IMG/VR virus record: IMGVR_UViG_3300020576_006644
Coordinates: 48,624 to 112,623 of that record
Direction: 5' to 3' (one strand)
Length of the DNA: 64,000 nucleotides
Source: a virus
Lineage: Duplodnaviria > Caudoviricetes
Below, piece by piece: positions 6,832-61,556 of this stretch (within the stretch, counting starts at the first letter, position 1; every line of letters starts with the position of its first letter). Made by a program: the position numbers and the translations under genes. Below the pieces are notes generated by a model, which was not told where the DNA came from, made no database searches, and worked only from the letters and a program-made list of their open reading frames with translations.

Positions 6832-6853
6832 GCAAGCCGGGACGTTTGTTCAG
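6832..6853 (-). promoter_or_regulatory. LexA-box-like operator fused to -35
   Basis: GCAAGC-CGGGAC-GTTT-GTTCAG. Confidence 0.6.
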
Positions 6854-7255
6854 CTACCAGCAACCGCCGGTGCAAACCGAAGGATTCTTAGCCTTGCAGT
6901 AAGGGCGGTGATTCACGGCGATATCGTCATCCCGCCGCTTCTTCAGCTCCGCCAAGCAGGCCCCACACTTAGTGACCGCGTCCTTCCCGCCGATCAGGTC
7001 CGCCAGCTTGTGGCCACAGGGAAGCCCGGTCCCTTCCAGCTTGGTCAGCCACTCGTCGGCGATCTTGATAATGGATTCCGGGGTCTTCTTCTGCAGATCG
7101 ACAATCTCGTTTTCTAAAGCGAGAATTTCGCAGTCGGCGTGATGTGGGAATGGATCTGGCTGCGGGTGTACTGCACCAGTTAGCTTCCGACACACCGTGC
7201 ACAAGTACCCGCGGAAGTCACCACTTCCCCACCGGGTTTCTACAACGATCTTCAT
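6854..7255 (-). CDS. Hypothetical Cys/His-rich protein
   Basis: ORF track; operon context. Confidence 0.55.
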   Translation of the reverse strand: MKIVVETRWGSGDFRGYLCTVCRKLTGAVHPQPDPFPHHADCEILALENEIVDLQKKTPESIIKIADEWLTKLEGTGLPCGHKLADLIGGKDAVTKCGACLAELKKRRDDDIAVNHRPYCKAKNPSVCTGGCW

Positions 7256-7266
7256 GAGTCGAACTC

Positions 7267-8094
7267 CTATACAAGCCCCGGCGGCAGCTCGACGACCACA
7301 TCCTCACCTTCGAGGAAGTCCAGGTTGAACAGACCCCACGGGGCGTAGACCGCGAGATTTATCTTCGCGATGATGACCATCACCTCGTCGATGTCCTGCC
7401 CGTACAGGCGCAAGCAGCGGTTGCTCGCGTGCAGCAGCATCCGGGCCGAGCCCATGGCCGGGTCGCAGACGCTCTTGGGTCGCGTGTCCTCCCGGCCGCC
7501 GATCTGCGTCCGCACCATGAGCTCGCAGATGGGATGCGGGGTCGGGAAGAACTTGTGCGGGCCGCCGCCGTAGCGGATGGCGCCGAGCTCACCCAGGTAG
7601 TCGCTCGGCCGGCGCAGCCATTGCCCGAGGTCCACCTGACGGTACAGCTGCTCGGACAGATCGTCGGAGAGCCCAGGGTCCGCGCTGTGGACGCCCAGAC
7701 CCCAGCCGAGGAACCGGGCGAAGTCCCGGTAGCTCGTCCACTGCCCGCCGCTCTTGTCGCACAGCTCCAGCCACTTTTCCGTCTGCCGCAGCACCGCAGG
7801 GTCGGCGTTATCAAAGTCGACCTGCGGGATGGGGTCGCCGGGCAGTCCGCGCAGATCGACGACCCGGGCGAGGTAGCCCCACCTGTCGGGGAAGCCGGTC
7901 TGGCTCCCGGCCTCGGCGTGCAGCGCCTGGACCAGCAGCCGCAGCCACCCCTTGAGCCGCCAGGGCTTCACCTCGTCGCCGATCATCGGCATGCGCCCGG
8001 TCCGCAGGAGGTGCCCGACGGCAGATAAGGGGTCCGCGCCGAGAGCAATTGCTGTGGCGGTCAGCTGGGCCTGGGCGGTGATCTGCTCAATCAT
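7267..8094 (-). CDS. N6-adenine methylase-like protein (SAM-binding half only)
   Basis: FFPTP...VCDPAMGSARML...LYGQDID as in type I HsdM-like MTases; stops before any NPPY/F motif. Confidence 0.7.
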   Translation of the reverse strand: MIEQITAQAQLTATAIALGADPLSAVGHLLRTGRMPMIGDEVKPWRLKGWLRLLVQALHAEAGSQTGFPDRWGYLARVVDLRGLPGDPIPQVDFDNADPAVLRQTEKWLELCDKSGGQWTSYRDFARFLGWGLGVHSADPGLSDDLSEQLYRQVDLGQWLRRPSDYLGELGAIRYGGGPHKFFPTPHPICELMVRTQIGGREDTRPKSVCDPAMGSARMLLHASNRCLRLYGQDIDEVMVIIAKINLAVYAPWGLFNLDFLEGEDVVVELPPGLV

Positions 8095-8357
8095 TTCTCC
8101 GCGCACCCTTCTGCCGGCAGCGCCGGCGCCTGCTTGAAAGCCACCCCGGCCTTTATCCCCTCGCGGCCCGCAAGAAAGATGTCCATCTCCCTTAAGACCG
8201 TCTCCTCCATCTCTCCGTGGCAGTAGGCCCGAAAGACGTAGGTAGTCCGCAGGATTCCAGCCGCATGCTGGGTGAACAGGTCGACCTGCCTCCCGCAGCG
8301 CCCGCAGGTCGGGATAGGGAGCATGCAGCTCTCGGGGAGCGGTTCGAGGTGGAGCAT
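8091..8357 (-). CDS. Hypothetical protein
   Basis: ATGA overlap; CxxC. Confidence 0.5.
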   Translation of the reverse strand: MLHLEPLPESCMLPIPTCGRCGRQVDLFTQHAAGILRTTYVFRAYCHGEMEETVLREMDIFLAGREGIKAGVAFKQAPALPAEGCAEK

Positions 8358-8361
8358 CGGG

Positions 8362-8739
8362 CTACTTGACCTCGGCCCCCAGCTTGAACTCCACCGCATG
8401 CTCGGTCACTTTCCCGTCCACCACGCGCAACCCGCTGTGGCTGTCTCCGTCCTCCCAGGTCAGCAGCAGGTCTGCCGAACCCCAGGTGGCGGCGAGCGCC
8501 TTGCGCAGGTTGTCCTCGCTGCGGCCAGAACCCTCGCCGCGCCAGCGCACCCGGGTTATCTCCAGCTCCTCGGTCCGCCCCGGCAGTTCTTCGACCTCTA
8601 TGACGCTTCCATCGTCCTCAAGGAAGTTTGCCTCGGGCAGCTGGCCCTCCAGCTCGTCACGCAACTTTTTGCGTACCTGCGCGTTTATGCGCAGCCGCTC
8701 CTCGCCCAGGTAGTCGATGCTTCCGATGTTGTAGGCCAT
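8362..8739 (-). CDS. Hypothetical acidic protein
   Basis: RBS AAGGAG; GC-rich third codon positions. Confidence 0.65.
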   Translation of the reverse strand: MAYNIGSIDYLGEERLRINAQVRKKLRDELEGQLPEANFLEDDGSVIEVEELPGRTEELEITRVRWRGEGSGRSEDNLRKALAATWGSADLLLTWEDGDSHSGLRVVDGKVTEHAVEFKLGAEVK

Positions 8740-10101: not shown

Positions 10102-10448
10102 GACGACTTCCTTTTTATGGCGGTTATTCCGCGACCAACAGGCACGCCGCGAAGCTGCGCAGAGAAGCCGGCCATCAGACGGTCAACCGAGGCGTCCGCT
10201 TCTTCTGCAATCTTGTTGAGCCCAGCGTCGTCCGCCACGTCCTTGTAATCCCGCTCCAGCTTCTTGAGAGGAACGCTGCGGCGGACATTGACGCGGCCGA
10301 CGCGCCGCAGCCGCACCACATCCCCCTTACGGCTGGTGTCCAGGGCGTAGACGTACCAGACGAGCCCTTGCAGGTCTTCCTTGTACTTACCCAAATGCTT
10401 CTGGGCCGCCGGGTCCTTGGCGAGCCACGCCGGGCTAGAGCTTTCCAT
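10098..10448 (-). CDS. Hypothetical protein
   Basis: Coupled ORF. Confidence 0.6.
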   Translation of the reverse strand: MESSSPAWLAKDPAAQKHLGKYKEDLQGLVWYVYALDTSRKGDVVRLRRVGRVNVRRSVPLKKLERDYKDVADDAGLNKIAEEADASVDRLMAGFSAQLRGVPVGRGITAIKRKSS

Positions 10449-10767
10449 CGCGAATCTCCTGGGCGAGCTGGGCCTGCAGCATCATCTCGATGGCGCTGAA
10501 GTCGGTCTCCATGACGACCTTCCCCACAAAGCGGTCGACGCCCGGATCGAACCCAGGAACGAAGAGGCCGCCCTTGAGGCGGAGTTGGTCGATCGGTAGG
10601 TACTGACGGACCACGGCCTCCTTGGTCGTGAACCGGCTCGCCAGCGCCGCCCGCACCCGGGCAGCGATTGCCGGGTCCTGGTAGGCGACCCAATACGTGG
10701 TTCCCACGAACAGCTCGACCGCGCCGGGCCGACAGAGCGTCCCGACCGGATAGTGCATCACCTGCAT
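10435..10767 (-). CDS. Hypothetical protein
   Basis: RBS GGAGG; downstream of SOS-box-like operator. Confidence 0.6.
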   Translation of the reverse strand: MQVMHYPVGTLCRPGAVELFVGTTYWVAYQDPAIAARVRAALASRFTTKEAVVRQYLPIDQLRLKGGLFVPGFDPGVDRFVGKVVMETDFSAIEMMLQAQLAQEIRDGKL

Positions 10768-10813
10768 GGTTTGTCCCTCCTGGGGAAGATCTGCTCAGAT
10801 CACGGTCGGGCTG

Positions 10814-10835
10814 GCAATACTGGACGTTCGGTCAG
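10814..10835 (-). promoter_or_regulatory. LexA-box-like operator fused to -35
   Basis: GCAATA-CTGGAC-GTTC-GGTCAG. Confidence 0.65.
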
Positions 10836-14919: not shown

Positions 14920-15678
14920 CTAGGGCTTGGTCCAGGTGATGAGTACCGTCGAAACGTCGGTCCCCTCCTTGGAGAAGGTCCCCGCCGGCAGCTCCTCGAT
15001 TTCCCCGCCGATCGCCAGGGCCTCGCGCAGCCCCTTATAAAGGGCGGTCTCGCGGAAGGTCACGCCGGCCGAGGCAATTGCAGCCAGCCGGCCACCGGGG
15101 CGGAGGAACTTCATCGCGTGCAGGATGTGGCGAGCCTCCTGCCCCTTGGAGAACGGCGGGTTCATGACCACCGCGTCGTAGGTCGCCTCTGGCATCTTTT
15201 GAAGAAAATCGCCGCCTTGCGTGCAGAACCCCGCCACGATTAACTTTGCGGCCCGAGCTGGGTCCTGCTCGTAGCAATAAACCTGAGGGGTGATCGCCTT
15301 CGCCTCCGCCGCGATGCGGCCAAGCCCGGCGGACGGCTCCAGCACAAGATCGCCTGCCCGAACAGCCCAGGCCACCATTCGCTTGGCCAGCTCGGGCGGC
15401 GTCTGGAAGAAGTCCCCGGCGAACTTGGTCTTGAACTCCCCGGTGAGGAGCAGCGCCTCGATCTCGTCTGTCGGATCGTGATCGAACAGGTGCCCCTTCA
15501 CCTTCTTGTTCCAGCTGCCACCCAGGGCCTCCACCGCCTCGTTGAAGGCCACGTAGACCTTGCGGTCTAGCTGCCCATCGGTGATCCGCGCCACCCAGCA
15601 CATCGGACCCTGCTCTACCACCAGCCGGCTCAGCACACCCAGGACTTCCGGGGTTAGCTTCTTAATCGACTTCGCCAT
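14920..15678 (-). CDS. SAM-dependent DNA amino-methyltransferase (N6A)
   Basis: FFQTP, VLEPSAGLG, VVMNPPF, LRPGGRL motifs. Confidence 0.85.
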   Translation of the reverse strand: MAKSIKKLTPEVLGVLSRLVVEQGPMCWVARITDGQLDRKVYVAFNEAVEALGGSWNKKVKGHLFDHDPTDEIEALLLTGEFKTKFAGDFFQTPPELAKRMVAWAVRAGDLVLEPSAGLGRIAAEAKAITPQVYCYEQDPARAAKLIVAGFCTQGGDFLQKMPEATYDAVVMNPPFSKGQEARHILHAMKFLRPGGRLAAIASAGVTFRETALYKGLREALAIGGEIEELPAGTFSKEGTDVSTVLITWTKP

Positions 15679-15737
15679 GTTCACGATCTCCACGTTCAAA
15701 GGTTGAGCACCCACCAAATCTGATTACCCACCCGATC

Positions 15738-16206
15738 GCAATCCTGAACATCCACCCAGCCGAGCCGTTCCCACAGGTACGACCACGGGTACAAAAATCC
15801 TGGTCAAACTAAAATCTCCGACGGAACTACCGGAAAAGAAGTCACACACTAAACGGGGGTGGTGGGTGGTATCTAGGGGGACTAGGGCGGGCAAGGGGCC
15901 GGAGGCGCGGCGGGCAGCCGGCAGGGCGTTTTAAGGGCTGCAGAGCCCGGTGGCCGAGTTTTAGGGTGTCTGGGTCTCCGGTTTTTGTGTCTCGCCTTAC
16001 ATTTTGGACTCCTGTCCCCTGCGGTTTGGGGCTCTAACCACCCTGCCGGCTGCACCCCAACCACCACCTCGTCCCGTTTAGTAGGGTGACTTCTTTTTGG
16101 ATGTCCCCGTCGGTGAGTTTTGCGTGACCACGATCTTTTGTGTGTCTGGGTGGGTTTGTGTCCAATCTGGGTAAGCTGGGATGCTGACCAAACGTCCAGG
16201 ATTGCC
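15738..16206. repeat. Long imperfect inverted repeat in the divergent intergenic region (candidate origin)
   Basis: Arm 15791-15869 matches the reverse complement of 16057-16141 (shared AAAAGAAGTCAC..ACTAAACGGG, CCGACGG, TGGTCA); operator-like sites at 15738-15759 and 16184-16206. Confidence 0.75.
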
Positions 16207-16238: not shown

Positions 16239-17297
16239 ATGAAACCGACCCACTACCAGATCCTGGGGATCGCCAAGACCGCTGCGGCTGAGGAGGTGAA
16301 GGCCGCCTTTCGCAGGCTGGCCCGGCTGAACCACCCCGATCGAAACCCGGGTGACAGGGCAGCCGAGGAGCGGTTCAAGCTGGCCGCTGCAGCCTACGAG
16401 GTGCTGTCCGACCCCGCCAAGCGTCAGCACTACGATCGCTTCGGCACCGCGGCCCCGATCGTCATCCCCAGCCGCAAGGGCCGCTACCTGATAGAGGGCC
16501 AGATCGCCTCCGGGGACCTCGCCGACATCTACAAGGCCAAGCGCGAGGCGGACGGGTGGCAGGTCGTCCTCAAGGTCGCCCGGTCGCCCGCGGTGAACGA
16601 CCTCCTGGCGGCCGAGGCTGCGCGGCTGAAGGACCTGTTCCCGATCGCTGCCTCACCGATGGGGCCCGGGGTCCGCTACCTGCCCAAGTTTTACGACAGC
16701 TTCCAGGTGGATGACGGGACGCGGCGGCAGGTGCTGGTGCTGGACTACCTCGCCGACTTCGCCACCTTCGAGCAGGTTCGGTCGCACTTCCCCGCCGGGG
16801 TGGCCCTGGAGCATGGGGTCTGGATGTTCAACCGCCTGCTGGAGGGCCTCGACTATGCGCACCGCCAGGGGCACGTTCACGGGGCGCTCGTGCCGTCGAA
16901 CGCCATGGTTTGGCTCGACCCCATGGGGCACCTGTGCAAGATCATCGACTGGAGCTACGCCGGCAAGGTCGGCGAGCGCGTCAAGGCGATTTCCCCGAGC
17001 TGGCGGTCGTTTTACCCGCCCGAGGTCCTGGGGAAGCAGCCGGCCACCGCGGCGACCGACATCTATATGGCGGCCAAGCTCGTCGGCTACGTCCTGGGTG
17101 GCACCGAGGCGAGTCACTGGCTCCCGTCGGCCGCCCCCGACTACTTGCGGCGGTTCTTGACGGGCTGCTGTCTGCCGGACCCGCGGCAGCGCCCCCAGGG
17201 CGCCTGGGCCGCCCACGAAGAGTTCCGCGCCTACATGCAGGCGCATTACGGGCCGAAGAAGTTCGTGCCCTTTACCAACCCGGGCTGGGCCCGGTAG
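16239..17297 (+). CDS. J-domain (DnaJ) fused to Ser/Thr kinase-like (pseudokinase) domain
   Basis: HYQILG...HPDRN...AYEVLSD..KR..YD; kinase [24 protein letters not shown]. Confidence 0.85.
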
Positions 17298-18400: not shown

Positions 18401-19771
18401 ATGCTCAGAAAAACTTTGGCACCCCAGGTCGTTCTGCTCTGTGGCCTCGGGTTCGGCGACGAGGGGAAGGGTACGACGGTGGATTTTTTGACCGAGCAGC
18501 TCGGAGCACACACCGTCGTTCGCTATAACGGCGGCCCACAGGCGGCGCACACCGTCGTGGAGAAGGGCCGGCACCACGTCTTTGCGCAGTTCGGCTCAGG
18601 GACGCTGCTGGGTGCACGGACCTACCTCAGCAGCCACATGCTGGTTTGCCCGTTCCGCCTGCAGTCTGAGGCCGCCGCGCTGGACGCGATCGGCATCCGT
18701 CGGTCCCTCGACATGGTGGCGATCGACCGGGCGGCGCCGCTGGTGACGCCGGTGCACAAACTGGCCTGCCAGGTGCGGGAGCTGGCGCGCCAGGACCGGC
18801 ATGGCTCCTGCGGGATGGGCATCTGGGAGACAACGCGGATCGCTCGGCAGAACCCCAAGATCGCCCCGCGGGTTGGGGACTTGGAGGACATCGACCTTCT
18901 CATGGAGAAGATTGAAGCCCTGCGCCTGGAGATGCTGTACGACGTGTGCGACGACGTGGTGGCAGCAAGGGAGACGCCCCGGCACGCCGCAGCTCAGAAG
19001 GTCTATCAGGAACTCGACGACCTGGACCTGCCCGCGCTGCGCCAGCGATACGCGGAGATCGGTAAGGAAACCACCCTTGGAAAGTACGGCCTGGTCGACA
19101 GCGGGTACTTGGGTGATCGTCTCCAGTCTGGCACCACGATCTTCGAAGGGGCACAGGGTGTGTTGCTCGACGAGACGTGGGGATTCCACCCGCACACGAC
19201 GGGCAGCACGACCACCTTCGCTAACGCCGAGGACATCCTGTCGGACCTGGGGTACGGCGGGGAAAAGTACCGGATCGGGGTTCTGCGCAGCTACATGACG
19301 CGGCATGGCCAGGGTCCGATGCCGACGGAGCTGCGCACCCTGGCGTCCGAGGAGGTCCACAACAAGACGACCCCATGGGCAGGGGACTTCAGGCACGGGA
19401 TACTCGATTTGGTCCTCCTCCGCTACGCCATTTCCGTGGTCGGCGGTATCGACTCGCTGGCGCTCACCCACGCGGACCGCTGGTCGAAATACGGGACCGC
19501 CTGCGTGTCGTACTCCCCGGTGTCGCAGCGCTATTTCCAGCTCGGCGGTGCGCTGTTGCGCCGGTCGGAGTGCCCAGACCTCGGTTACCAAGAGGGGCTG
19601 GGTCGTGCGGTCGCGGCTGCCCATCCGGTGTGCAAGTCGGGAGATCTCATCGAGATCGTCGAGGATCAGCTGCAGGTCGATGTTTCCGTCTTGTCGAGCG
19701 GCCCTGGGCGCGGCGACAAGTGCTGGCTGAACAAACGCGCCGGATTGCCGGCCGCGGCTGCCTGCGGGTAA
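18401..19771 (+). CDS. Adenylosuccinate synthetase-like (PurA family) enzyme, atypical substrate loop
   Basis: GFGDEGKG, VRYNGGPQAAHT, FEGAQG.LLD, YMTRHG.GP.PTE, LTH.D. Confidence 0.9.
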   Translation: MLRKTLAPQVVLLCGLGFGDEGKGTTVDFLTEQLGAHTVVRYNGGPQAAHTVVEKGRHHVFAQFGSGTLLGARTYLSSHMLVCPFRLQSEAAALDAIGIRRSLDMVAIDRAAPLVTPVHKLACQVRELARQDRHGSCGMGIWETTRIARQNPKIAPRVGDLEDIDLLMEKIEALRLEMLYDVCDDVVAARETPRHAAAQKVYQELDDLDLPALRQRYAEIGKETTLGKYGLVDSGYLGDRLQSGTTIFEGAQGVLLDETWGFHPHTTGSTTTFANAEDILSDLGYGGEKYRIGVLRSYMTRHGQGPMPTELRTLASEEVHNKTTPWAGDFRHGILDLVLLRYAISVVGGIDSLALTHADRWSKYGTACVSYSPVSQRYFQLGGALLRRSECPDLGYQEGLGRAVAAAHPVCKSGDLIEIVEDQLQVDVSVLSSGPGRGDKCWLNKRAGLPAAAACG

Positions 19772-22042: not shown

Positions 22043-22511
22043 TTTCCCTGGAAATGGCTACCGGCCGGCTGTCCCCGCGCACCCTGACCAAGACCGGCTG
22101 CCCCCACCTGAAGGGGTAGAGCACCGAGTCGTTGAGCAGGTGGACGAGGCACAGCCCCTCCTTTAGCTCCCCGGTGGCCCAGATCGACTCGGTGTTTCCG
22201 TCCCAGTCGCGGAGAGCTACCTTGAACTCCCCGTGCTGCGCCCGGAGGGTGTCGATGAACGCCTTGTCGGGGTGCAGCGGCGCGCGGATCGAGAAGGGCG
22301 GCGGGTCGTCCTCGGGTTTCCACGATGATCCTGGCGAGGGGACCATCCGGCGGCGCTCTTTGAACAGCGGCGGCAGCTTCTCCTTGTGTTGGTCGCAGTA
22401 GTAGGCGTCCCCGGCGTAGTCTTTGTTGGAGATGTGTAGGTAAGGGTCGACCAGCACCACGCGGGTGGTCGCGGGGTCAGGACATCCGATCTCTGCACAT
22501 TGGGTCTTCAT
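22026..22511 (-). CDS. Hypothetical protein
   Basis: ATGA-coupled to the transporter gene. Confidence 0.55.
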   Translation of the reverse strand: MKTQCAEIGCPDPATTRVVLVDPYLHISNKDYAGDAYYCDQHKEKLPPLFKERRRMVPSPGSSWKPEDDPPPFSIRAPLHPDKAFIDTLRAQHGEFKVALRDWDGNTESIWATGELKEGLCLVHLLNDSVLYPFRWGQPVLVRVRGDSRPVAISRENGDRA

Positions 22512-23896
22512 GCCGCCCTCTTCATCTTGGGGACCAGCCGCAGCTTGGCGATCTGCTTGCCGGCCGCCTCCCACCGCTGCACGGCCTCCAGCTCCTTGGG
22601 TGGCTGCCCCGAGCCGACGAGCCTGGACAGCGGGCGCCACAGGAGCGCCACCAGCGCGGCGCCGGAGAGGCCTACCCCGGCCAGCACGGCGAAGTAGCCC
22701 GAGTGCGACAGCGCCGGCCACGCCACCCGGCCGATCTGCCCGGAGACGAAGCCGCCGACCGAGCTCGAAAGTAGCCACACGCCGAGCAGGAACCCACGCA
22801 GCCGCTGCGGGGCGAGCCGCGCCACCAGCGCCGTTCCGATGGGGCTCACGAGCAGCTCTCCGATGGTGATGAGCAGGTAGAAGCCGAGGAGCCACGCGAT
22901 GCTGACGCCCTTGGCGCTGCCGGCCGCCCCGACCCGCAGGAGCGCCGCCGCCGCCGCGGACAGCAGCAACCCGGCGAGCAGCATGTGGATGGGGCCGATC
23001 GGTGCGCCCTGCCGCCGCCGGTTCAGGGCCTTGACTGCCCACTCGATGACCGGGGTGAGCACCAGGATGCCGATCGGGTTGATGGCGTTCGTCAGCGTCG
23101 CGTACTCGGCTAGCCCGGCGACGCACTCTTTCGCCCAGAGCGTCAGCGACCCGCCGTCGGCGAGGTATACCGCCCAGAAGAGAGACGCCACCACGGAGAC
23201 CGCCACGATCGCGGCCACGCGCCGCCCGGTGTCCGCTGGGTACGAGCCACGGTTCTCGCTGGTGGCGTCGGTGTCGAGTGGCTGGTCGAGGGCCTGGGCG
23301 AGAGGGGAGCGGTTGTCGACGAGGTGCCGGCGGAAGGTCCAGAAGGTGGCAAGGCCGATGCAGTGCCCGACAGCCGCCGACCCGAAGGCGAAGCCCCACC
23401 CGAGCCGGGTGACCATGACGGTCCCGAGGAGCGGCGCCACCATGGCCCCCAGGTTCACCGCCAGGTAGTAGCGGCTGAAGGCCTGCTCGTGCCGCGGGTC
23501 GCCCTCCTTATAGAGGGCGGAGAGCAGCGACTGCATGTTCGGCTTGAAAAGCCCATTGCCGACGACGATGAACCCCATCGCTAGGATGAGCGCTGTCCGT
23601 GACTCCACCGTCATGATGAGGTGGCCGGCGGCGATGACGCACCCGCCTATGAGCACGGCCCGCTTGAGCCCGAGCACCCGGTCGGCCAGCAGCCCGCCAA
23701 AGGGCGGCGTGAGGTAGACAAACCCCTGGAATGTGCCGAACATCTCCAGCGCCTGCGCGTCCGTCATCCCGAGGCGCTTGGTCATGTAGACAACGAGCAG
23801 CGCCCGCAGCAGGTAGTAGCCGAACCGTTCCCACAGCTCGGTAAAAAATAGGACGAGGAAACCTGGAGGGTGACGGTTTGGCAGCTGCTGCGGCAT
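22508..23896 (-). CDS. Proton-dependent oligopeptide transporter (POT/PTR2, MFS)
   Basis: ELWERFGYY (ExxER), GGLLADRVLG, GNGLFKPN, YYLAVNLG, GELLVSPIG; many TM segments. Confidence 0.93.
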   Translation of the reverse strand: MPQQLPNRHPPGFLVLFFTELWERFGYYLLRALLVVYMTKRLGMTDAQALEMFGTFQGFVYLTPPFGGLLADRVLGLKRAVLIGGCVIAAGHLIMTVESRTALILAMGFIVVGNGLFKPNMQSLLSALYKEGDPRHEQAFSRYYLAVNLGAMVAPLLGTVMVTRLGWGFAFGSAAVGHCIGLATFWTFRRHLVDNRSPLAQALDQPLDTDATSENRGSYPADTGRRVAAIVAVSVVASLFWAVYLADGGSLTLWAKECVAGLAEYATLTNAINPIGILVLTPVIEWAVKALNRRRQGAPIGPIHMLLAGLLLSAAAAALLRVGAAGSAKGVSIAWLLGFYLLITIGELLVSPIGTALVARLAPQRLRGFLLGVWLLSSSVGGFVSGQIGRVAWPALSHSGYFAVLAGVGLSGAALVALLWRPLSRLVGSGQPPKELEAVQRWEAAGKQIAKLRLVPKMKRAA

Positions 23897-23983: not shown

Positions 23984-24262
23984 ATGTGGGAGCAGCGCTT
24001 GACGCACGTTCAGTATTGCGGCGAGGGCGGAGATCTGGGCGAATGGTGGGAAAGGAGAAATTGTATGGAAGAGGAACTTGTAAAATTACGCGCGTGGGCG
24101 TCACAAGCGGCACCGATTATTGAAGCGCTAAGGGAAGTTGAAGAATTGCGAAGGGCTTGGAAACAAGCCCCTGACCATGAGAAAAGAGAGCGGTTTGCGG
24201 CGCTTATTTTGAAGGAAATATCAATCGTGAGCATCCCGCTTCCACCGAAAGGAACACCATGA
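23984..24262 (+). CDS. Hypothetical protein (start uncertain)
   Basis: AT-richer ORF coupled to next gene. Confidence 0.45.
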   Translation: MWEQRLTHVQYCGEGGDLGEWWERRNCMEEELVKLRAWASQAAPIIEALREVEELRRAWKQAPDHEKRERFAALILKEISIVSIPLPPKGTP

Positions 24263-26720: not shown

Positions 26721-26742
26721 GCAAGCCTGAACGTGCGGTCAG
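26721..26742 (-). promoter_or_regulatory. LexA-box-like operator fused to -35
   Basis: GCAAGC-CTGAAC-GTGC-GGTCAG. Confidence 0.65.
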
Positions 26743-27293
26743 GGCAGCGTAGCCTTGAGCCAGTCAAGCACGCGGCTGGCCCGGTGGTAGTGCGGCGAGG
26801 TCGGGTCCTCGTAGTACATGATGATGTCGGCCATCTTCTCGATGTCTTCGCGCGGGAGCGGCGGCACCGCTTTGTCGGTGAGCCGGTAGCCGCAGCTCTT
26901 GTACCGCCCGCCGGCCTTCTCGATGTAGCCGTGGTGGGTGAGGACCTTGATGTGGTCGTTGACCCCGTTGGTAGAGCGGGCACCGAGGGCTGCGCCCAGG
27001 TCGCGCAGGGTCGGGGGTTTGCCGCCGCTCTGCCGCGTGAGCTCGATGATCTTGCGGAGGTAGATGGCGGCCCTCGGCGCCAGATCCGGGTAGGCGGGGT
27101 CAGGACTGACCGAATCCCGTCGCGGGTGCCACGTTTTGGCCGCTTCGGGGACCGGGCACCAGGCGTACAGTGTCTGTGTGGTGACGCCGAGCTGGCGGGC
27201 GGCGGCGCAGTAGTTGCCGTACTTCTTGCGGATCCCCTCGTAGCCGAGCGCTGTCGTCTCGGCCCGCATCGGGTGGTGCTTGTACTTGTTCAT
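26739..27293 (-). CDS. LexA DNA-binding-domain repressor with extra N-terminal HTH, no S24 peptidase
   Basis: PPTLRDLGAALGARSTNGVNDHIKVLTHHGYI; N-terminal AAARQLGVTTQTLYAW. Confidence 0.85.
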   Translation of the reverse strand: MNKYKHHPMRAETTALGYEGIRKKYGNYCAAARQLGVTTQTLYAWCPVPEAAKTWHPRRDSVSPDPAYPDLAPRAAIYLRKIIELTRQSGGKPPTLRDLGAALGARSTNGVNDHIKVLTHHGYIEKAGGRYKSCGYRLTDKAVPPLPREDIEKMADIIMYYEDPTSPHYHRASRVLDWLKATLP

Positions 27294-27325
27294 GCTCGGC
27301 AACATGCCCGCAGCCGCCGCCGGGG

Positions 27326-27353
27326 GCAATCAGGAACGTATGTTCAGGATTGC
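27326..27353. promoter_or_regulatory. Palindromic LexA-box-like operator between divergent lexA-like and RNA ligase genes
   Basis: GCAATC-AGGAAC-GTAT-GTTCAG-GATTGC. Confidence 0.75.
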
Positions 27354-27386: not shown

Positions 27387-28247
27387 ATGGGATACCTACA
27401 CATTGAAAACTTGTATAAGTCGCAGGACATCTTGCTCTTTCGGGAGTGCTACGCCCTGGAGAAAGTCCACGGCACGAGCGCTCACGTCAAGTGGAGCGAG
27501 GGCTGCGTCCTTAATTTCTTCTCGGGTGGTGAGTCGCACGAGAGGTTCAAGGCCCTCTTCGATCAGAATGATCTGACGAATCGCCTCCGGGCGCTCACGC
27601 ATCCAGACATCACCATCTTTGGTGAGGCATACGGCGGCAAGTGCCAGGGTATGTCCGCGACTTACGGTCCCGAGCTGCGCTTTATCGCCTTTGACGTGAA
27701 GGTTGGCGAGTATTGGCTATCGGTGCCCGATGCGGAGCAGGTCGCTACAGCTCTCGGGCTGGAGTTCGTCCCATACGTCCGCTTACCGACCGACCTCTCC
27801 AACCTAGATTGGTGTCGGGATGCCCCATCGATCCTGGCGGCGAATCGCGGATGTGGGTTAGATAAGAAGAAAGAGGGTGTCGTTCTCCGCCCGCTTGTTG
27901 AGCTGACCAAGAACAACGGCGACCGGATCATCGCCAAGCACAAGCGGGACGAGTTCCGTGAGCGCGCCACACCGCAAAAGGTCATCGACCCGGACAAGCT
28001 GAAGGTTCTCGCCGATGCGGACGCCATCGCCGCCGAGTGGGTGACGGAGATGCGGCTGGCGCACGTCATCGACAAGATCTGCCCCGTACCCGACATTGGA
28101 GCCACCCCCAAAGTAATCGCCGCGATGGTGGAGGACGTGGAGCGCGAGGCGGCGGGCGAGATCGTCGTCAGCAAGGAGGCCCGTGCCGCCATCGGCCGCC
28201 GCACGGCGCAGCTCTTTAAGGCGCGGATCGCCACCATCCTCCGCTAG
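27387..28247 (+). CDS. RNA ligase (Rnl2 family)
   Basis: EKVHGTS (motif I), FGEAYG, FIAFDV, EGVVLR, IAKHK. Confidence 0.88.
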   Translation: MGYLHIENLYKSQDILLFRECYALEKVHGTSAHVKWSEGCVLNFFSGGESHERFKALFDQNDLTNRLRALTHPDITIFGEAYGGKCQGMSATYGPELRFIAFDVKVGEYWLSVPDAEQVATALGLEFVPYVRLPTDLSNLDWCRDAPSILAANRGCGLDKKKEGVVLRPLVELTKNNGDRIIAKHKRDEFRERATPQKVIDPDKLKVLADADAIAAEWVTEMRLAHVIDKICPVPDIGATPKVIAAMVEDVEREAAGEIVVSKEARAAIGRRTAQLFKARIATILR

Positions 28248-28954
28248 TTCTCCCCCAGCGCCTCCTTCAGCGCCCACCGCAGTCCCGCCTCCAGCTTGAA
28301 CTTCCCTCGGGCCCCGGCCCGCTTGCAGGCTCGCGACAACAGCGCCTTCAGCTCCCGCTGCCCGGCCGCCGTCGAGCAGCTCACCTCCAGCAGCGGCGAC
28401 TGCTCGCTGCGCTCCGCCGGCGCGTCAGCGTCTCTCGAGCCGCTCCCGGCGTCCGGGTCCGGCAGGTCGGGCAGCTGCGCGCCGGCGCCGTCGGTTCCCG
28501 GCTCCACCCCGAGCAGCAGGTCCATGTCGGCGCGGTCCCAGCCGGCCGCGGCGTACAGGTCCTCGCGCGACCAACCCTCCCCGTGGAGGAACTTGAGGTC
28601 GGCGGCCACCACGTCCTGCCGCGGCTCCCCGCGCCAGCGGTTCAGCGCCAGCCGCAGCGCCCGGAGCTGTGCGTCGGTCATCGACTCGGGGTAAACGAGC
28701 GCCGGCAGCTCGACAAGGCCAGCCACCCGGGCAGCTCGGAGGCGGTGGTTGCCGTCGACGATGTCGTACTGCTTGCCGGGTAGGGCTCGGAGGGTGATCG
28801 CCTGAGCGAAGTCGAGCCGCCGCACCGCCTCACATAGACCGGCGAAGGATGCCTCATCCATCGAATTGGGATTTTCGTCCGTCGGTGTGTCTTGGCAATC
28901 AGCGACGGGGACTACGAGCTGGATGGGGCGGGGCGGGGCTTTCGAGGGGGACAT
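28244..28954 (-). CDS. ParB/Srx N-terminal domain protein
   Basis: NPN.M, IVDGNHRLRAA, LNRWRG. Confidence 0.8.
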   Translation of the reverse strand: MSPSKAPPRPIQLVVPVADCQDTPTDENPNSMDEASFAGLCEAVRRLDFAQAITLRALPGKQYDIVDGNHRLRAARVAGLVELPALVYPESMTDAQLRALRLALNRWRGEPRQDVVAADLKFLHGEGWSREDLYAAAGWDRADMDLLLGVEPGTDGAGAQLPDLPDPDAGSGSRDADAPAERSEQSPLLEVSCSTAAGQRELKALLSRACKRAGARGKFKLEAGLRWALKEALGEN

Positions 28955-39091: not shown

Positions 39092-39109
39092 GCAAACTTT
39101 CAGGATTGC
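39088..39109 (+). promoter_or_regulatory. LexA-box-like operator fused to -35
   Basis: CTGAGC-AAAC-TTTCAG-GATTGC. Confidence 0.6.
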
Positions 39110-41971: not shown

Positions 41972-42074
41972 GGTGTGATCCTTTCGCAAAATACATCACC
42001 CGATCTGCGTGCTGCTGGCAATCCTGAACATCCGTCTTTAGGCCGCCGGGGCGGCGCCGCCCTATCCTCGTGGC

Positions 42075-42401
42075 ATGCCGGTCTTCCAAGCGTACGTAGA
42101 TGTGTCCGACGATGCCTACCCCACCGACCCGCAGGTGGTCATACCATTCACGCCCGACAGCTTCCTCTTTATTAACCAGGGAGGGAGCGACGACGGGGCG
42201 GATACCCCGAGCGTGGTGCAGATCGCCTTCGACTCGGTGCGCAGGCACCCGGACAGCAGCCTTGTCGACGACTGCAGCGTGGACGTGAGCGGCCCGGGGC
42301 AGTCGCTGGCCGTCAACGAGCGGGCGACGCGGGTGTTCCTGCGCAACGTCGACAGCGGGGCCGGTACCACCATCAAGATCATCGCGAACAAGGCCAAGTA
42401 G
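42075..42401 (+). CDS. Hypothetical (possible virion) protein
   Basis: TATCCT-6-ATG leaderless start; beta-rich. Confidence 0.6.
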   Translation: MPVFQAYVDVSDDAYPTDPQVVIPFTPDSFLFINQGGSDDGADTPSVVQIAFDSVRRHPDSSLVDDCSVDVSGPGQSLAVNERATRVFLRNVDSGAGTTIKIIANKAK

Positions 42402-46214: not shown

Positions 46215-46356
46215 GATCCTAAAGTCCGCAAAGATCAAGGACTTCATCTAGTGTAGCCTGCGCAGATCCACAGTTTTCTGATACGCAACCTCAGTTTCCT
46301 AGAATCACGTCGCTGGTCAAATACCGTGCCAACTTTTACACTCGGAAGTTAGGTAA

Positions 46357-46372
46357 CTGAAACTGCGTTCAG
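46357..46372. promoter_or_regulatory. LexA-box-like operator
   Basis: CTGAAA-CTGC-GTTCAG. Confidence 0.5.
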
Positions 46373-46456
46373 TAGTCTCAGAAAACTGAGGATTAGCCGG
46401 TTCGTAAATGGTTGAACCTTTTGTCTAGCCGTCGGTGAGCTTGTGAAGACGTGTGT

Positions 46457-48142: not shown

Positions 48143-48384
48143 CAGCCGCCAGCATCGAGATCATCAAGTGGACCTACCCGCACCAGATCGGCACGCACAA
48201 TGCCTTGACGATGGCTGCCGGGATAGCCATCGGCCGCGGTAAGCCGGCCGACCCATCTCTGGCGATGACGACCGACGCCACCGGCTTCTCCCTCGCGCTC
48301 GTGTGGGACGACGACGCCGAGATCTGCCTGCGCGTGGACACCTCGACGTGGCAGGGCGCGCTGCGCCTCTTGCTCGCCAGCTGA
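48139..48384 (+). CDS. Hypothetical protein
   Basis: GTGA-coupled. Confidence 0.5.
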   Translation: MTAASIEIIKWTYPHQIGTHNALTMAAGIAIGRGKPADPSLAMTTDATGFSLALVWDDDAEICLRVDTSTWQGALRLLLAS

Positions 48385-48402
48385 ACGCACGTTCCGGGTT
48401 GC
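48381..48402 (+). promoter_or_regulatory. LexA-box-like operator fused to -35
   Basis: CTGAAC-GCAC-GTTCCG-GGTTGC. Confidence 0.65.
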
Positions 48403-48435: not shown

Positions 48436-49392
48436 ATGACCAAGCCCCAGCCACTCACCTCTCCCCTCAAGTACCCCGGCGGCAAGCGCAAGCTGTTCGC
48501 CGAGATCAACAAGCGGCTCCCGTCGGGCAGCTTCAAGTACGCCGAGCCGTTCTGGGGTGGCGGCTCCATCGGCGTGCGGCTGGCCGGGGAGGGACGGCTC
48601 GTCCAGCTGGTGGCCGGGGAGGCGTGCGGTCCGGTGCGGGCGTTCTGGGAGGCGCTGGCTGGGAGGCTGAGGAATGTGGCCTTTGCCGATTTGCTTCAGC
48701 GAGCAAGCAAGCGGACGTTTGAAGACCCACAAGCCGCCTTCAACGACCATCGCGAGGCCTTGAACTGCTACGCGGCGAACGGGGTGCAGCCTGGAGCCTA
48801 TGACTACGCAGGCGCGCTGCTCCTCACCCTCAACAAGACCTGCATGAACGGCCTTGTCCGCTTCAACAGCAAAGGCGAGTTCAACGTCCCCATCGGCCGA
48901 CGGCAGGACGGCAGCTTCTACCGCTTCCAGCCGGACTTCGAGCACCTGGACCGGGTGCGAGCCGCGCTGGTCGGCGCGCAGTTTGAGGTCTGGCCCCACT
49001 GGATGAGCGTCCTGGGGCGGATTCCGCAGGACGACGCCAGCGGCTGGGCGATCTACGCCGACCCACCCTACACCGGGGGGTTCGTCGACTACACCGCCGA
49101 GGGATGGCACTCGGACGACGACATTGAGCTGTTCGAGGACCTGCGTACACAGGGTGAGCGTGGCGCTCGCGTCATCCTCAGCCAGCCTGACACCGAGTGG
49201 GCCAGGGACTGCTGCTCAAGCCTCCTCAAGGGCTGGCAGGTCGACAAGCTGGAGGTGGGGCGGCCCATCAACAGCGATGGCCAGGGCCGCGGGCCGGTGG
49301 GGGAGCTGCTCATCTGGAACAAGCCCGCCGAGACCGTTGTGGTAGACATGCGGCCGACGGTGGACGCGCTTTTCGACGAGGGACCCGTATGA
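48436..49392 (+). CDS. dam: Dam-like (D12 class) DNA adenine methyltransferase
   Basis: LKYPGGK, EPFWGGGS, NGLVRFNSKGEFNVPIG, YADPPY, ELLIWN. Confidence 0.9.
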   Translation: MTKPQPLTSPLKYPGGKRKLFAEINKRLPSGSFKYAEPFWGGGSIGVRLAGEGRLVQLVAGEACGPVRAFWEALAGRLRNVAFADLLQRASKRTFEDPQAAFNDHREALNCYAANGVQPGAYDYAGALLLTLNKTCMNGLVRFNSKGEFNVPIGRRQDGSFYRFQPDFEHLDRVRAALVGAQFEVWPHWMSVLGRIPQDDASGWAIYADPPYTGGFVDYTAEGWHSDDDIELFEDLRTQGERGARVILSQPDTEWARDCCSSLLKGWQVDKLEVGRPINSDGQGRGPVGELLIWNKPAETVVVDMRPTVDALFDEGPV

Positions 49393-52952: not shown

Positions 52953-52974
52953 ACAATCCCGAACATTCGTTCAG
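52953..52974. promoter_or_regulatory. LexA-box-like operator between divergent ACP leader and portal
   Basis: ACAATC-CCGAAC-ATTC-GTTCAG. Confidence 0.65.
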
Positions 52975-52998: not shown

Positions 52999-54771
52999 AT
53001 GATGTTCTCCAGGCAAGCCGACGCGACCGCCACCGCCTTCCCCGTCTCCGCCAAGATCCTCACCGGGAACGATGTCCGGCACTACCCCTCGGGGCAGGGC
53101 GGGCTGGACTTCTCCCCCCAGCAGCAGGAGCTCAACGCCAAGTGGGCCTGGTACACCGGCAGCCAGTACGCCGGGTGCCGCTACGACTGGCAGGGGGCGC
53201 GGCTGGACGGCCCCACCAGCACCCTGGCCAAGGCGCTCGTCCCGCAGTCGACCGGCATCCCGCCGGGCTTCGCCAACATGGCGCCGCCGCGGATGGCTGA
53301 GCGGCGGCCAAGCGCGCCGCACCGCCTCGTTGCCCGGGTGGTGGACCGCTTCACCTCGCTGCTGTTCGCCGAGGACGCCCACCCCATCATCCGGGTGGTC
53401 GGCGACGAGGACACCGGGCACTGGCTCGCCAGCTTCGCCTCGACGAGCCGGCTGTGGGCCAAGATGCAGCTGGCGCGGACCATCGGCGGGGCGCAGGGCG
53501 CGGTGGCGGTCGGCTTCCGCTACATCGAGGGCGCGCCGCGCGTCGAGCCTATAGACGTGCGGTGGGGCCGCCCGATCTGGCTCGACAAGGAGGCGCTCAT
53601 CTTGCGGGCGCTGGATATCCGCTATCAGGTGCCGGCCACCATCCGCAGGAACAAGCGCAGCCAGCCCGAGACCTGCTACTACTGGGTCCGGCGCCTCATC
53701 TCCGATCAGGCCGAGATCTGGTACAAGCCGGTTTGGGCTTCGGAGTGCCCGGCGCTGACGCTGGATGACGGGACCAAGGTGGAGGCCGGCGACGGGCAGG
53801 AGCCTCCCTGGCGGCTGCTCATCGACGAGGGGCGCTCCGTCCGCCACGACCTCGGGTTCTGCCCGGTGGTGTGGATGCAGAACCTGCCCCACCACGAGAG
53901 CGTCTACGGGCGGGCCGACTGCGACGGGCTCTACGAGCAGGCCCTGGACCTCGACCGCCTCCGCGCCGGCATCTCGATGGCGTGCAGCGCCAACATGGAC
54001 CCCACCCTCGTCATGGAGAACGAGGACGGCGTCTTCCCCCAGCAGCTCCGCAAGGGCAGCGGCCACGGGATCGGCATCCGCATCCCCGGTAAGGTCAGCT
54101 ACCTGGAGATCTCGGGGGCCGGCATCCAGCTGGCCATGGACCACTTCAAGGAGGCGCGGGACAGCTTCTTCGAGGAGGCCGAGTGCTTGGAGTCGTTCAC
54201 CCGATCCGGCGGCCCGCCGCAGACCGCCTTCGAGGTGGGGGCCAAGCTCGGGCCGCAGCAGTCCAAGGTCAGCATGTTCCGCGAGCAGTACGGGCAGGGC
54301 GTCCGGCGCCTACTCGACTTGGCAATGCGGGCGGCCCGCGTCCTGGAGTCGCGCGGGGAGGAGGTCCGGCTGGAGCCGCGGATCATCAAGCCCGAGGAGG
54401 AGGGGGAGAGCGAGCGCGTGGAGCCGGTGCGCCTGGGGCCTGAGGGCAGCTACCTCGACGTGACCTGGCCGCCGATCAGCCGCCCGACCTCCGCCGAGGT
54501 CCAGGCCGCCGTCACCTCCGCAGCCGCCGCCGTCCAGGGGGGCGTCGTCGACCAGAAGACCGCCACCAAGTTCGCCGCCCCGTTCCTCGGGGTCGACGAC
54601 CTGAACGCGCTGCAGGCCCGGATGGAGAAGAAGGCCGAGGAGCAGCAGGCACAGGCGGAGCAGCTCGGGCAGCCGCCACCCGGTCCCGGTGGCGCGCCAC
54701 CCAAGCCGGCCGGTTTCCCCAAGCTACCCAAAGCTCCCAAGCCGCCCGGCGGGCCGGCAAGTCCGGGGTAG
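52999..54771 (+). CDS. Portal protein (SPP1-like)
   Basis: Position after TerL, size, W.Y.G.QY, HDLGFCPVVW..N, G.AD, Pro-rich tail. Confidence 0.8.
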   Translation: MMFSRQADATATAFPVSAKILTGNDVRHYPSGQGGLDFSPQQQELNAKWAWYTGSQYAGCRYDWQGARLDGPTSTLAKALVPQSTGIPPGFANMAPPRMAERRPSAPHRLVARVVDRFTSLLFAEDAHPIIRVVGDEDTGHWLASFASTSRLWAKMQLARTIGGAQGAVAVGFRYIEGAPRVEPIDVRWGRPIWLDKEALILRALDIRYQVPATIRRNKRSQPETCYYWVRRLISDQAEIWYKPVWASECPALTLDDGTKVEAGDGQEPPWRLLIDEGRSVRHDLGFCPVVWMQNLPHHESVYGRADCDGLYEQALDLDRLRAGISMACSANMDPTLVMENEDGVFPQQLRKGSGHGIGIRIPGKVSYLEISGAGIQLAMDHFKEARDSFFEEAECLESFTRSGGPPQTAFEVGAKLGPQQSKVSMFREQYGQGVRRLLDLAMRAARVLESRGEEVRLEPRIIKPEEEGESERVEPVRLGPEGSYLDVTWPPISRPTSAEVQAAVTSAAAAVQGGVVDQKTATKFAAPFLGVDDLNALQARMEKKAEEQQAQAEQLGQPPPGPGGAPPKPAGFPKLPKAPKPPGGPASPG

Positions 54772-54798
54772 ACCTGAGCGCGCGTTCAGCGCTACATT
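54769..54798 (+). promoter_or_regulatory. Leaderless promoter with LexA-box-like operator overlapping the -35/-10 spacer
   Basis: TAGACC-18-TACATT-6-ATG; CTGAGC-GCGC-GTTCAG at 54774-54789. Confidence 0.65.
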
Positions 54799-54804: not shown

Positions 54805-55191
54805 ATGGGTACATGCACTGAGAGGCGCTACAAGGAGCTCACCGCCCGGGAGTGGTGGGTGCAGGAGATCTTCGGCAAGAGGCCGTGCGACAGCTGCTCG
54901 GCCCGGCCGATCAACGTCCTTGCCCACATCACGCTCCCCGAGACGCGCGTGGGGCTCATGGACCCGATTGGGTTGGCTCTCGGGACCTACGGCGACCCGG
55001 TGGCGTTCAAGCCGGCGCTCGCCACCGAGCGCTACTACTCGGTGGGGACCCTGGCCGCCTGCTGCGCCTGCGAGAAGGCCATGGAGCAGGTGCTGGCGCA
55101 CCGCACCTCCAGCCGCGGGGACCTCGGCAGCTCCGCCTACGTCTCCTTCGATCGGCCGCCCACCGATCGGCTCGTGGTGCTGGCGTCATGA
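54805..55191 (+). CDS. Zn-binding hypothetical protein
   Basis: CDSC...CCAC. Confidence 0.6.
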   Translation: MGTCTERRYKELTAREWWVQEIFGKRPCDSCSARPINVLAHITLPETRVGLMDPIGLALGTYGDPVAFKPALATERYYSVGTLAACCACEKAMEQVLAHRTSSRGDLGSSAYVSFDRPPTDRLVVLAS

Positions 55192-60829: not shown

Positions 60830-60869
60830 CTAACTCCCGCTTGACCGCGCCGGCATCCCCGGCGCATCC

Positions 60870-61270
60870 TCTCCCTCGTGCTTCCCGCTCAGATCGAGAT
60901 TCTGGCTAGGTCCTGGCAACGGGGCCGTGTCGTGGCTCGCCCTGGCGGGAAGCGCTGCCCGGTCCTGCCAAGGACTGGGTTCCGCGGGCCGGAGGCGGTC
61001 GGGAAGGCAAGCCCGGCAGCCCGAGGCGCACCAGGCTCAGCCGCCGCGCGCAGAGTCAACGTCGAGGCCAGGCCATCCCAAACGCGAGCCCTCAGAGCAC
61101 CGGGCGCGAGCGGGCCGGGCAGCAAACGGGGCCGAGCGGGCGGCGGCACTTGCCCCCTGGTGTCAGGCGCGGAGCGCTGAGTAGCCGGCACCGCCCCTGA
61201 AAATCACGCTTCCGCAGCGGGCCGGTTCATTGCGCCGGCGACAGCGGGAAGGGGCGGTGCCGGCGGCGAG
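60870..61270 (+). ncRNA. Candidate large structured ncRNA downstream of the MCP
   Basis: Own promoter TTGACC-17-CATCCT (60841-60869); many hairpins; 15-bp closing helix GCCGGCACCGCCCCT/AGGGGCGGTGCCGGC. Confidence 0.45.
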
Positions 61271-61273
61271 GTG

Positions 61274-61531
61274 TCAGCCGCAGTAGCGTGGGAAGTCGAA
61301 CTTCTGGGTCTTGAGGGCTTCCTTGGCCAGCAGCGACAGCTCTGCGCTGGGTTGCTCATCGGCGGCGACCGCTTCGAGAACGCGCTGATACAGCTTGTCC
61401 TCCAAGCCGTGTGCCTTCTCGGGGTCCATATCCTTTACCTTCTTGATCTCCGCTACCGCGGCACGCACAACTTTACGGGCGAGCAACATGCTGATCTCCT
61501 TGTGCGAGCACATCACCATCTGAGCCACCAC
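61274..61531 (-). CDS. Small hypothetical protein (probable start MLLARK)
   Basis: RBS AAGGAG; D.E.AH..ED.L...VL pattern. Confidence 0.6.
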   Translation of the reverse strand: MVAQMVMCSHKEISMLLARKVVRAAVAEIKKVKDMDPEKAHGLEDKLYQRVLEAVAADEQPSAELSLLAKEALKTQKFDFPRYCG

Positions 61532-61534
61532 CGC

Positions 61535-61556
61535 GCAATCCCGAACGTATGTTCAG
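61535..61556. promoter_or_regulatory. LexA-box-like operator between divergent genes
   Basis: GCAATC-CCGAAC-GTAT-GTTCAG. Confidence 0.7.

Follow-up and report, generated by a model that had tools for sequence, protein, structure and literature searches.

LexA-box-like elements fused to promoters across the genome of a large phage that encodes a LexA-like protein

To our knowledge, phage-encoded homologues of the SOS repressor LexA have been studied in essentially one case, gp6 of GIL01, which acts at one site. gp6 is a truncated LexA homologue of this Bacillus thuringiensis tectivirus that binds the palindrome GaCACAC GTGTGaC, centred at −43.5 and overlapping the −35 element, and activates one late promoter (PMC6182141). 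The protein has little beyond its DNA-binding domain (DBD) and its site does not resemble the LexA box of the host; in this 15-kb temperate phage, host LexA takes part as well. Dispersed sites for one regulator are familiar as stoperators, which are oriented with transcription and lie within and between genes of temperate phages. In Cluster A mycobacteriophages, dozens of short asymmetric stoperators are spread across the genome for a single regulator (PMC9283540, PMC6550527), a repressor that reads the asymmetric sequence with two domains (PMC9283540). Here we describe a 64,000-nucleotide window (positions 48624–112623 of the 112,623-bp IMG/VR record IMGVR_UViG_3300020576_006644, Caudoviricetes), together with the rest of that phage record, in which an asymmetric 22-bp element resembling a LexA box recurs, including at both ends of a gene for a LexA-like protein (the regulator; window 26739–27329, minus strand). 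What is new here is that a LexA homologue encoded by a phage occurs together with operators dispersed over the genome; stoperators use unrelated proteins.

The regulator and gp6 both contain a LexA winged-helix DBD and lack the autocleavage domain, and the gp6 site centre at −43.5 compares with about −45 to −46 on one of the two faces of the element. In contrast to gp6, the regulator has an extra N-terminal helix–turn–helix (HTH) and C-terminal helices and keeps the LexA recognition helix, and its presumed site is LexA-box-like, occurs about 28 times and has two faces, in a 112-kb phage in which lysogeny genes were not found. As with stoperators, many sites are dispersed for what would be one regulator (29 matches at 28 loci in 112.6 kb), and the two-domain stoperator repressor may offer a loose parallel to the two DNA-binding modules of the regulator. 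However, stoperators act on elongating polymerase, whereas the sites described here lie upstream of the inferred transcription starts, are fused to a −35 element and are oriented by promoter class; placement in transcribed DNA, an elongation stop and an integrase-bearing temperate phage are all features of stoperator systems that we did not find. For the two faces the nearest cases are p4 of phi29, which sits between divergent promoters, repressing the early and activating the late one, and MotA of T4, whose boxes near −30 stand in for the −35 element at middle promoters. Both resemble the arrangement here, an early face with a −35 element and a structural face with the box near −30 and no −35 element, although the protein families and sites are unrelated.

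A 22-bp element recurring across the genome

An earlier sequence-only reading of the window had pointed to a 16-bp imperfect palindrome, CTGAAC-N4-GTTCAG, recurring at gene boundaries. The recurrence is real: allowing up to two mismatches, the window holds 16 matches against 2.05 expected (100 shuffles, maximum 6), and the whole phage, a genome of 65% G+C with direct terminal repeats, holds 25. When 25 copies are oriented by their flanking hexamer, the conserved unit is an asymmetric 22-mer, CTGAAC-RNAC-GTYCRG-GATTGC, in which the half farther from GATTGC shows the stronger conservation and the centre, A-C-G-T, is nearly invariant; in 82% of copies CTGAAC is preceded by G or C. A weight matrix for the 22 bp gave the 29 matches in 112,623 bp compared with 0.67 in first-order Markov shuffles, and at a stricter cut 27 compared with none, the scores being partly circular because 25 of the scored sites had gone into the matrix. 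Non-coding DNA makes up 22% of the genome in the gene set called by our own script, which is based on G+C content at third codon positions (GC3) and yielded 135 confident genes at 78% coding, yet 26 of the 29 matches lie in it. An unbiased k-mer count agreed, with GGATTG, GATTGC, RGGATTGC, ACGTTC and CTGAAC as the top intergenic-enriched words beside Shine–Dalgarno (SD) words. Nearly all of the 31 intergenic copies of GATTGC are joined to a box, and only four further good 16-mer boxes lack the hexamer. To the left of the window there are 13 sites, in a single orientation throughout.

Fifteen of the 17 positions that the sequence-only reading had listed form one family (6838, 10820, 15744, 16184, 26727, 27332, 30346, 30973, 35910, 36416, 39088, 42024, 48381, 52959 and 61541; coordinates are those of the window unless the genome or another contig is named). 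The remaining two fall away, 54774 being a box without GATTGC and 46357 belonging to a separate 132-bp inverted repeat, outside the 22-mer family. Two family members, 19727 and 23998, had been left out of that list, and a further match in the window, at 43846, lies inside a gene and looks like a chance occurrence. The 132-bp inverted repeat, about 92% identical, joins two low-GC islands, window 46265–46395 and genome 14597–14728 (L011), and holds a box-like CTGAACGCAGTTTCAG together with a CTCAG-TTTT-CTGAG hairpin.

Relatives of the phage proved scarce. Megablast found no near relative among 50,697 deposited phage records, matches to the portal protein were limited to distant Ralstonia and Komagataeibacter phages, and a terminase search returned two fragments at 27% identity from IMG/VR and remote matches only, with no related prophage, from 201 Myxococcota genomes. 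The regulator had no match in IMG/VR or in 185,579 species genomes, and an ESM Atlas search with the phage's POT transporter indicated no clear phylum. A 14-kb metagenomic contig (L010), however, encodes a regulator orthologue that is 56% identical and carries seven cassette loci, including both ends of the orthologue. Its syntenic cassettes adjoin the helicase, POT transporter and kinase-side genes. L010 3539–3566 and 4180–4207 are the counterparts of window 27326–27353 and 26721–26742, and L010 7566 and 7874 are orthologous to the window 23998 site. In pairwise alignments the box, hexamer and −10 element are kept while spacers and flanks diverge, as at the window 16184 site, where box, GATTGC and −10 are conserved and the spacer is not. 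Even odd variants are retained, such as CTGGGTGGATGTTCAG at L010 11660 and TATTTA in place of GATTGC at L010 831 (window 30973). The DNA 5′ of the regulator is near-identical between the two as far as the second ATG and divergent beyond it, which suggests that translation begins at 27293 on a leaderless message and that the apparent 'MLPSM' N-terminus is really promoter DNA.

Two promoter faces

On the GATTGC side of the box, a −10-like hexamer (TAGCGT, TACACC, TAGGGA, TAGTAG and similar) lies 16–19 bp beyond TTGCnn. At 11 of the 29 sites an ATG stands exactly 31–33 nt past the hexamer, where about 1.8 would be expected from a background of approximately 0.02 ATG per offset per site, and at nine further sites an ATG follows at 45–48 nt behind an SD sequence. 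Transcription starting about 32 nt downstream predicts this phasing, as leaderless messages in the first group and 13–16-nt leaders in the second, and the ATG positions support the earlier proposal that TTGC, two bases from the box, is a −35 element. The accompanying statement that GATTGC directly follows the box describes the eight plus-oriented sites; the others carry the hexamer on the opposite strand, as GCAATC before the box. Genes on this face include the DnaJ–protein kinase fusion, the D12 adenine methylase, the RNA ligase, a methyltransferase-like gene, an operon ending in DNA polymerase and the LexA-like gene itself.

The CTGAAC (or CTGACC) side is used differently. At ten sites it is followed by TAGGAT, TATCCT, TAGGCT or TACCAT, then 6–9 nt and an ATG opening a high-GC3 open reading frame (ORF) of 108–669 codons, and no −35-like hexamer is present. 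The distance from box to −10 is 9–10 nt at six of the ten. Nine of these promoters are located in the structural arms, and the annotated genes they precede are two baseplate-wedge homologues, one baseplate protein and the portal. As a rule of orientation, GATTGC is turned towards non-structural genes and CTGAAC towards structural ones, which explains the single orientation across the left arm; several cassettes serve divergent genes simultaneously. With transcription starts placed by these geometries, the box is centred at about −45 to −46 on the GATTGC face and about −30 on the CTGAAC face, so that the operator abuts a core promoter on either side, ending 2 bp before TTGC on the one and about 10 nt before the −10 element on the other. 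Two sites without a gene facing the hexamer nonetheless keep five of its six bases, and a −35 function accounts only in part for the one-sided GATTGC.

Leaderless TAGGAT promoters without a box are also present in the phage. The box must therefore mark a subset of promoters, a regulon, and we discarded the idea of a universal promoter element on this ground. A role in RNA, as a hairpin or terminator, was likewise rejected, because both faces put the box upstream of the inferred start; in addition there is no U-tract, and it is the sequence that is conserved rather than compensatory changes. The box-less promoters also bear on an interpretation in which the 22-mer is a promoter element read by RNA polymerase, through an alternative or modified sigma factor or another phage protein, and the LexA likeness is coincidental. 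The rigid placement of the box beside the −35 element, the near absence of GATTGC apart from the box, the asymmetric motif with its conserved central ACGT, and a weak Sigma70_r4-like HTH elsewhere in the phage would all fit such a reader. We nevertheless regard it as improbable, given that the box-less promoters share the same TAGGAT −10, that a search of the phage revealed no sigma region 2, and that a box at both about −46 and about −30 is inexplicable by any single sigma contact. That a phage with LexA-box-like sites also encodes a LexA-type recognition helix, and does so between two of them, is likewise hard to dismiss as coincidence. An extracytoplasmic function (ECF)-type or phage sigma promoter in particular was rejected for want of sigma region 2 and because, on inspection of the sequences, the spacing is unlike the ECF-type GAAC-N16–17-CGT.

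We also considered partition (parS-like), replication or packaging sites. parS sites are likewise 16-bp palindromes with a central CG, and a possible reader is encoded 1 kb from the regulator gene, a 193-aa protein with a ParB-family N-terminal domain (28244–28825, minus strand). This match covers the N-terminal domain only, and 28 dispersed loci with fixed start-codon distances and two strand-specific geometries sorted by gene class are the signature of promoters, which leaves such a function very unlikely. We conclude with high confidence that the repeats are transcription-factor operators fused to promoters.

The spacers beyond the hexamer have a further regularity. In eight cassettes GATC, mostly as GATCGG or GATCTG, occurs 10 or 12 nt past GATTGC (for example in the spacers 6800–6832, 10780–10814, 24020–24040, 36438–36455 and 41990–42018), and similar copies follow the L010 cassettes. 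GATC is found within 45 nt on the GATTGC side of 16 of the 29 sites and on the opposite side of two of the 29, while genome-wide it is over-represented, at 675 copies against 460 expected. Methylation-sensitive promoters are conceivable, because a D12-class adenine methylase is encoded under a cassette promoter.

The LexA-like regulator and host LexA

The longest ORF of the regulator gene encodes 196 aa, and the likely start at the second ATG (27293) would give 184 aa. Residues 98–141 match LexA_DNA_bind (PF01726) at 33.7 bits against a cut-off of 23.7, making this the sole such protein in the phage, and the regulator also matches LexA chains in the PDB by sequence. In the AlphaFold model (AF2; mean predicted local distance difference test score 69.5), an N-terminal three-helix HTH (residues 22–57) precedes the winged helix (85–145), so that the LexA-type domain is central rather than N-terminal, and two short C-terminal helices (160–193) occupy the place where LexA has its S24 domain. 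The top Foldseek hits of this model are the LexA–DNA complexes 3JSO and 3JSP, over 66–68 aa with a root-mean-square deviation of 1.5–2.2. The LexA equivalog model TIGR00498 reaches 26.7 bits against a cut-off of 110.95, through the DBD only, and no S24 peptidase (PF00717) was matched anywhere in the phage at E ≤ 0.01. Lacking this domain, the regulator could not be inactivated by RecA through LexA-type autocleavage. Its N-terminal HTH might, we speculate, contact GATTGC, because the hexamer is kept even where no gene faces it and intergenic GATTGC is nearly always linked to a box.

The regulator is 38% identical over 65 residues to Myxococcus LexA, the sequence of which was obtained via its published promoter sequence. 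The recognition helix, RSTNGVNDH(I/L)K, is the same in both, compared with RSPNAAEEHLK in E. coli, while distant members of the regulator family differ at recognition-helix positions. The matches listed by a search seeded with Myxococcus LexA were all Myxococcaceae-type LexAs; a region-limited homologue search returned no cellular LexA. From the shared helix sequence we infer that the regulator would have the DNA specificity of a Myxococcus-type LexA. It differs from M. xanthus LexA in failing the equivalog model and in having no S24 domain. The full architecture is rare: clustering at 90% identity gives eight clusters among 5.8 billion proteins, and clustering at 50% identity about seven among 1.84 billion representatives; the winged helix only was found in 2,299 of the 1.84 billion representatives, many of them 80–250 aa long.

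The box itself carries the same likeness. The sequence-only reading had compared it with the M. xanthus LexA box, CTRHAMRYBYGTTCAGS, a genuine published consensus with operators tested by electrophoretic mobility shift assay (PMC9705874). The resemblance holds up, although identity does not: no phage site matches this consensus exactly, 11 match with at most one mismatch (0.3 expected) and 22 with at most two, and the consensus may not be that of the host. The fit is always better when the GTTCAG(S) half points away from GATTGC, and the M. xanthus box is asymmetric in the same way, its GTTCAG(S) half being conserved and the other one looser. The phage consensus agrees with the M. xanthus lexA operator (PMC9705874) at 14 of 17 positions, including the central ACGT. 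In contrast, the M. xanthus lexA box lies downstream of its −35 element, TTGACT (PMC9705874), whereas the phage box lies upstream of the −35. The consensus sequences of the Gram-positive, actinobacterial and E. coli LexA boxes showed no excess in the phage.

These results lead us to propose that the element is a 22-bp composite promoter–operator, in which a LexA-type 16-bp operator would abut GATTGC. TTGC would serve as the −35 element of a sigma-70-type promoter that directs transcription away from the box and starts it about 32 nt past the hexamer, and this face would drive non-structural genes, that of the regulator included. At ten sites the CTGAAC face would hold a second promoter that dispenses with a −35 element, relies on a strong TAGGAT or TATCCT −10 and starts leaderless messages, for structural genes where these are annotated. 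The phage's own non-cleavable LexA-like protein is, on the sequence evidence, probably the cognate binder, with host LexA a possible second reader. The regulator would then autoregulate, its gene having a two-sided cassette at the 5′ end and another at the 3′ end, and would co-ordinate about 28 loci. By position the −46 face would be like the class II activator site of GIL01 gp6, and the −30 face would suit repression, or replacement of the −35 element in the manner of T4 MotA. Whereas the motif, its enrichment, fixed geometry and conservation, and the domain content of the regulator are direct observations, we infer its binding, the transcription starts and whether it activates or represses. 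A bolder version, which we hold only tentatively, is that a captured LexA DBD governs the entire temporal programme of a large and probably lytic phage, its occupancy switching transcription between an early-gene face, where it would sit near −46, and a structural face, where it would sit near −30, at about 28 loci at once, and that host LexA could couple this programme to the SOS response.

The recognition helix of the regulator being that of cellular LexA, host LexA could read the phage sites, and it may be asked whether it is the functional binder. The sites would in that case form an SOS regulon kept shut until RecA-driven cleavage, with the phage protein a modulator, for example as a competing non-cleavable mimic or as a gp6-like activator of late genes. 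The near matches to the M. xanthus consensus, which are orientation-matched, and the 14 of 17 positions shared with its lexA operator would suit this arrangement, as would the precedent of GIL01, which depends on host LexA while carrying a LexA homologue. A single 22-mer identical to two phage copies also occurs in an unrelated phage without a LexA-DBD gene, a complete 46.7-kb genome (IMGVR_UViG_3300044842_000216, 1666–1687), where CACCAT comes next and, after a further 7 nt, an ATG at 33 nt, the same leaderless geometry. This copy favours a shared host factor but may also be a transferred cassette or a chance match; it is given little weight because two IMG/VR contigs had an exact match to the 18 specified bases and we estimate that about two are expected by chance in the collection.

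Other evidence makes host LexA a doubtful candidate for the functional binder. The consensus has no exact match in the phage. M. xanthus LexA directly controls only five genes (PMC9705874), and across 301 Myxococcota genomes the 22-mer shows no enrichment (six matches compared with four for a reversed control), nor does it in the one Myxococcus genome searched. In both phages examined the motif instead accompanies the regulator gene and flanks it on either side. A lytic cycle would be blocked if host LexA repressed the baseplate, portal and polymerase genes all together; such repression would fit a LexA-dependent lysogen such as GIL01, yet no integrase was found in the phage and no other lysogeny gene was detected, which weighs against host LexA. 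The phage encodes its own replication machinery. Although these sites could also be bound by a host LexA that shared the specificity, neither it nor the SOS response is needed to explain the set, because the phage encodes its own LexA-DBD protein without S24, from a gene boxed at both ends.

The earlier interpretation, a LexA-type operator shared across transcription units as a distributed switch, is thus partly supported. The genome-wide, promoter-fused set stands, while a lysogenic switch is unsupported, as no integrase was found; we rejected it also because there is no S24 repressor.

Several points weigh against the regulator as binder. The close fit of the box to the M. xanthus consensus means that host LexA could be the real one, and the cassette in a phage without a LexA-DBD gene points the same way. 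A dimeric LexA-type protein alone leaves the one-sided GATTGC unexplained, and the box-to-−10 distance on the CTGAAC (CTGACC/CTGAAC) face varies, being 1, 14, 21 and 23 nt at the four sites outside the 9–10-nt group. Because the regulator family is rare, comparative support is limited to the one 14-kb relative. Start codons and intergenic limits are approximate because genes were called by our own GC3-based script.

As it stands, the regulator keeps a cellular LexA recognition helix and has lost the damage-sensing half of the protein, and about 28 cassettes tie two promoter geometries to two gene classes. If the regulator is the binder, the phage would have turned the fold of the host SOS repressor into its own global regulator, and the cassette would be a compact, portable, bidirectional promoter–operator part. 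Host LexA and a non-cleavable mimic from the phage might then interfere with one another, and the phage might, for instance, repress the SOS regulon of its host.

Individual sites and neighbouring genes

No tRNAs were found in the phage and no Rfam family reached threshold in the window. The leftmost cassette of the window (6832–6853, minus strand, score 30.3) points its GATTGC-type face, here GCTTGC, left to a helicase gene cluster. At 10814–10835 (minus) an SD-led ATG stands 46 nt past TATTGC, for the gene at 10435–10767 (minus). The cassette at 15738–15759 (minus, score 24.8) combines a degenerate CTGGGTGGATGTTCAG with GATTGC upstream of a methyltransferase-like gene (14920–15684, minus). 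This is one of three DNA-methyltransferase-like genes, the others being 7267–8094 (minus), which like it has N6_Mtase/MTS matches, and the D12-class gene at 48436–49392 (plus). The D12-class gene is preceded by the cassette at 48381–48402 (plus), with a −10 of TACACC and a leaderless ATG at 33 nt.

At 16184–16205 (plus) the −10 is TAGCGT and a leaderless ATG follows 33 nt past GATTGC, so that this promoter would drive the gene at 16239–17297 (plus), which fuses a DnaJ domain to a Ser/Thr protein-kinase domain. The cassette at 19727–19748 (plus) lies within the 3′ end of an adenylosuccinate-synthetase-like gene, with an SD-led ATG 48 nt downstream. That gene (18401–19771, plus) encodes a divergent homologue, scoring 157 bits with PurA against a cut-off of 402 and 38 with PurZ against 300, and no neighbouring gene was recognised as DatZ- or MazZ-like. 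The homologue might hint at a modified purine in the DNA, with consequences for any protein that reads these operators. The site at 23998–24019 (plus), with hexamer TATTGC, lies between a POT/MFS transporter gene and the next plus-strand gene. The full-length peptide-transporter gene, an unusual phage cargo, occupies 22508–23896 (minus) here and 7929–9401 in L010, with synteny kept.

Around the regulator gene, the cassette at its 3′ end (26721–26742, minus) has an ATG 31 nt past GCTTGC on the minus strand. The one at its 5′ end (27326–27353) is two-faced, with GCAATC and GATTGC flanking a single box (scores 27.6 and 26.4) between the LexA-like and RNA-ligase genes. Farther along, the hexamer is replaced at two sites: at 30340–30361 (minus), a weak match (score 16.5) with a good 16-bp box, TCTGGA takes the place of GATTGC and an SD-led ATG is 58 nt downstream, and at 30973–30994 (plus, score 21.7) TATTTA does so, with an ATG 33 nt downstream. 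Each flank of the cassette at 35904–35925 (minus, score 34.6) has a −35-like hexamer, GCAATC to the left and GGTTGACA to the right, for divergent starts. About 245 nt without a strong ORF follow the cassette at 36416–36437 (plus). Past the cassette at 39088–39109 (plus), a small ORF starts with the ATG at 32 nt, and it is 276 nt to the start of the next long one. Both faces of the half-degenerate site at 42018–42039 (minus, score 15.9) are used, the GATTGC side for an SD-led ATG at 46 nt (minus) and the other (plus) through TATCCT, 6 nt and the ATG of ORF 42075–42401 (plus).

In the structural region, the CTGAAC face of 52953–52974 (minus) is followed by 10 nt, TATCCT, 8 nt and the ATG of the portal gene (52999–54771), its hexamer being GATTGT with no gene facing it. 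Directly past the portal gene, the box without GATTGC at 54774–54789 (plus, 16-mer score 15.8) lies 16 nt ahead of the start of gene 54805–55191; TACATT stands 3 nt past the box and 6 nt short of the ATG. At 61535–61556 (minus) the CTGAAC face leads through 10 nt, TAGGAT and 6 nt to the ATG of a gene in the structural block (61579–62007). To the left of the window, at genome 24989 (L012 4989–5010), the GATTGC face leads to a 74-codon ORF and then a small gene, and the opposite face drives a baseplate-wedge gene.

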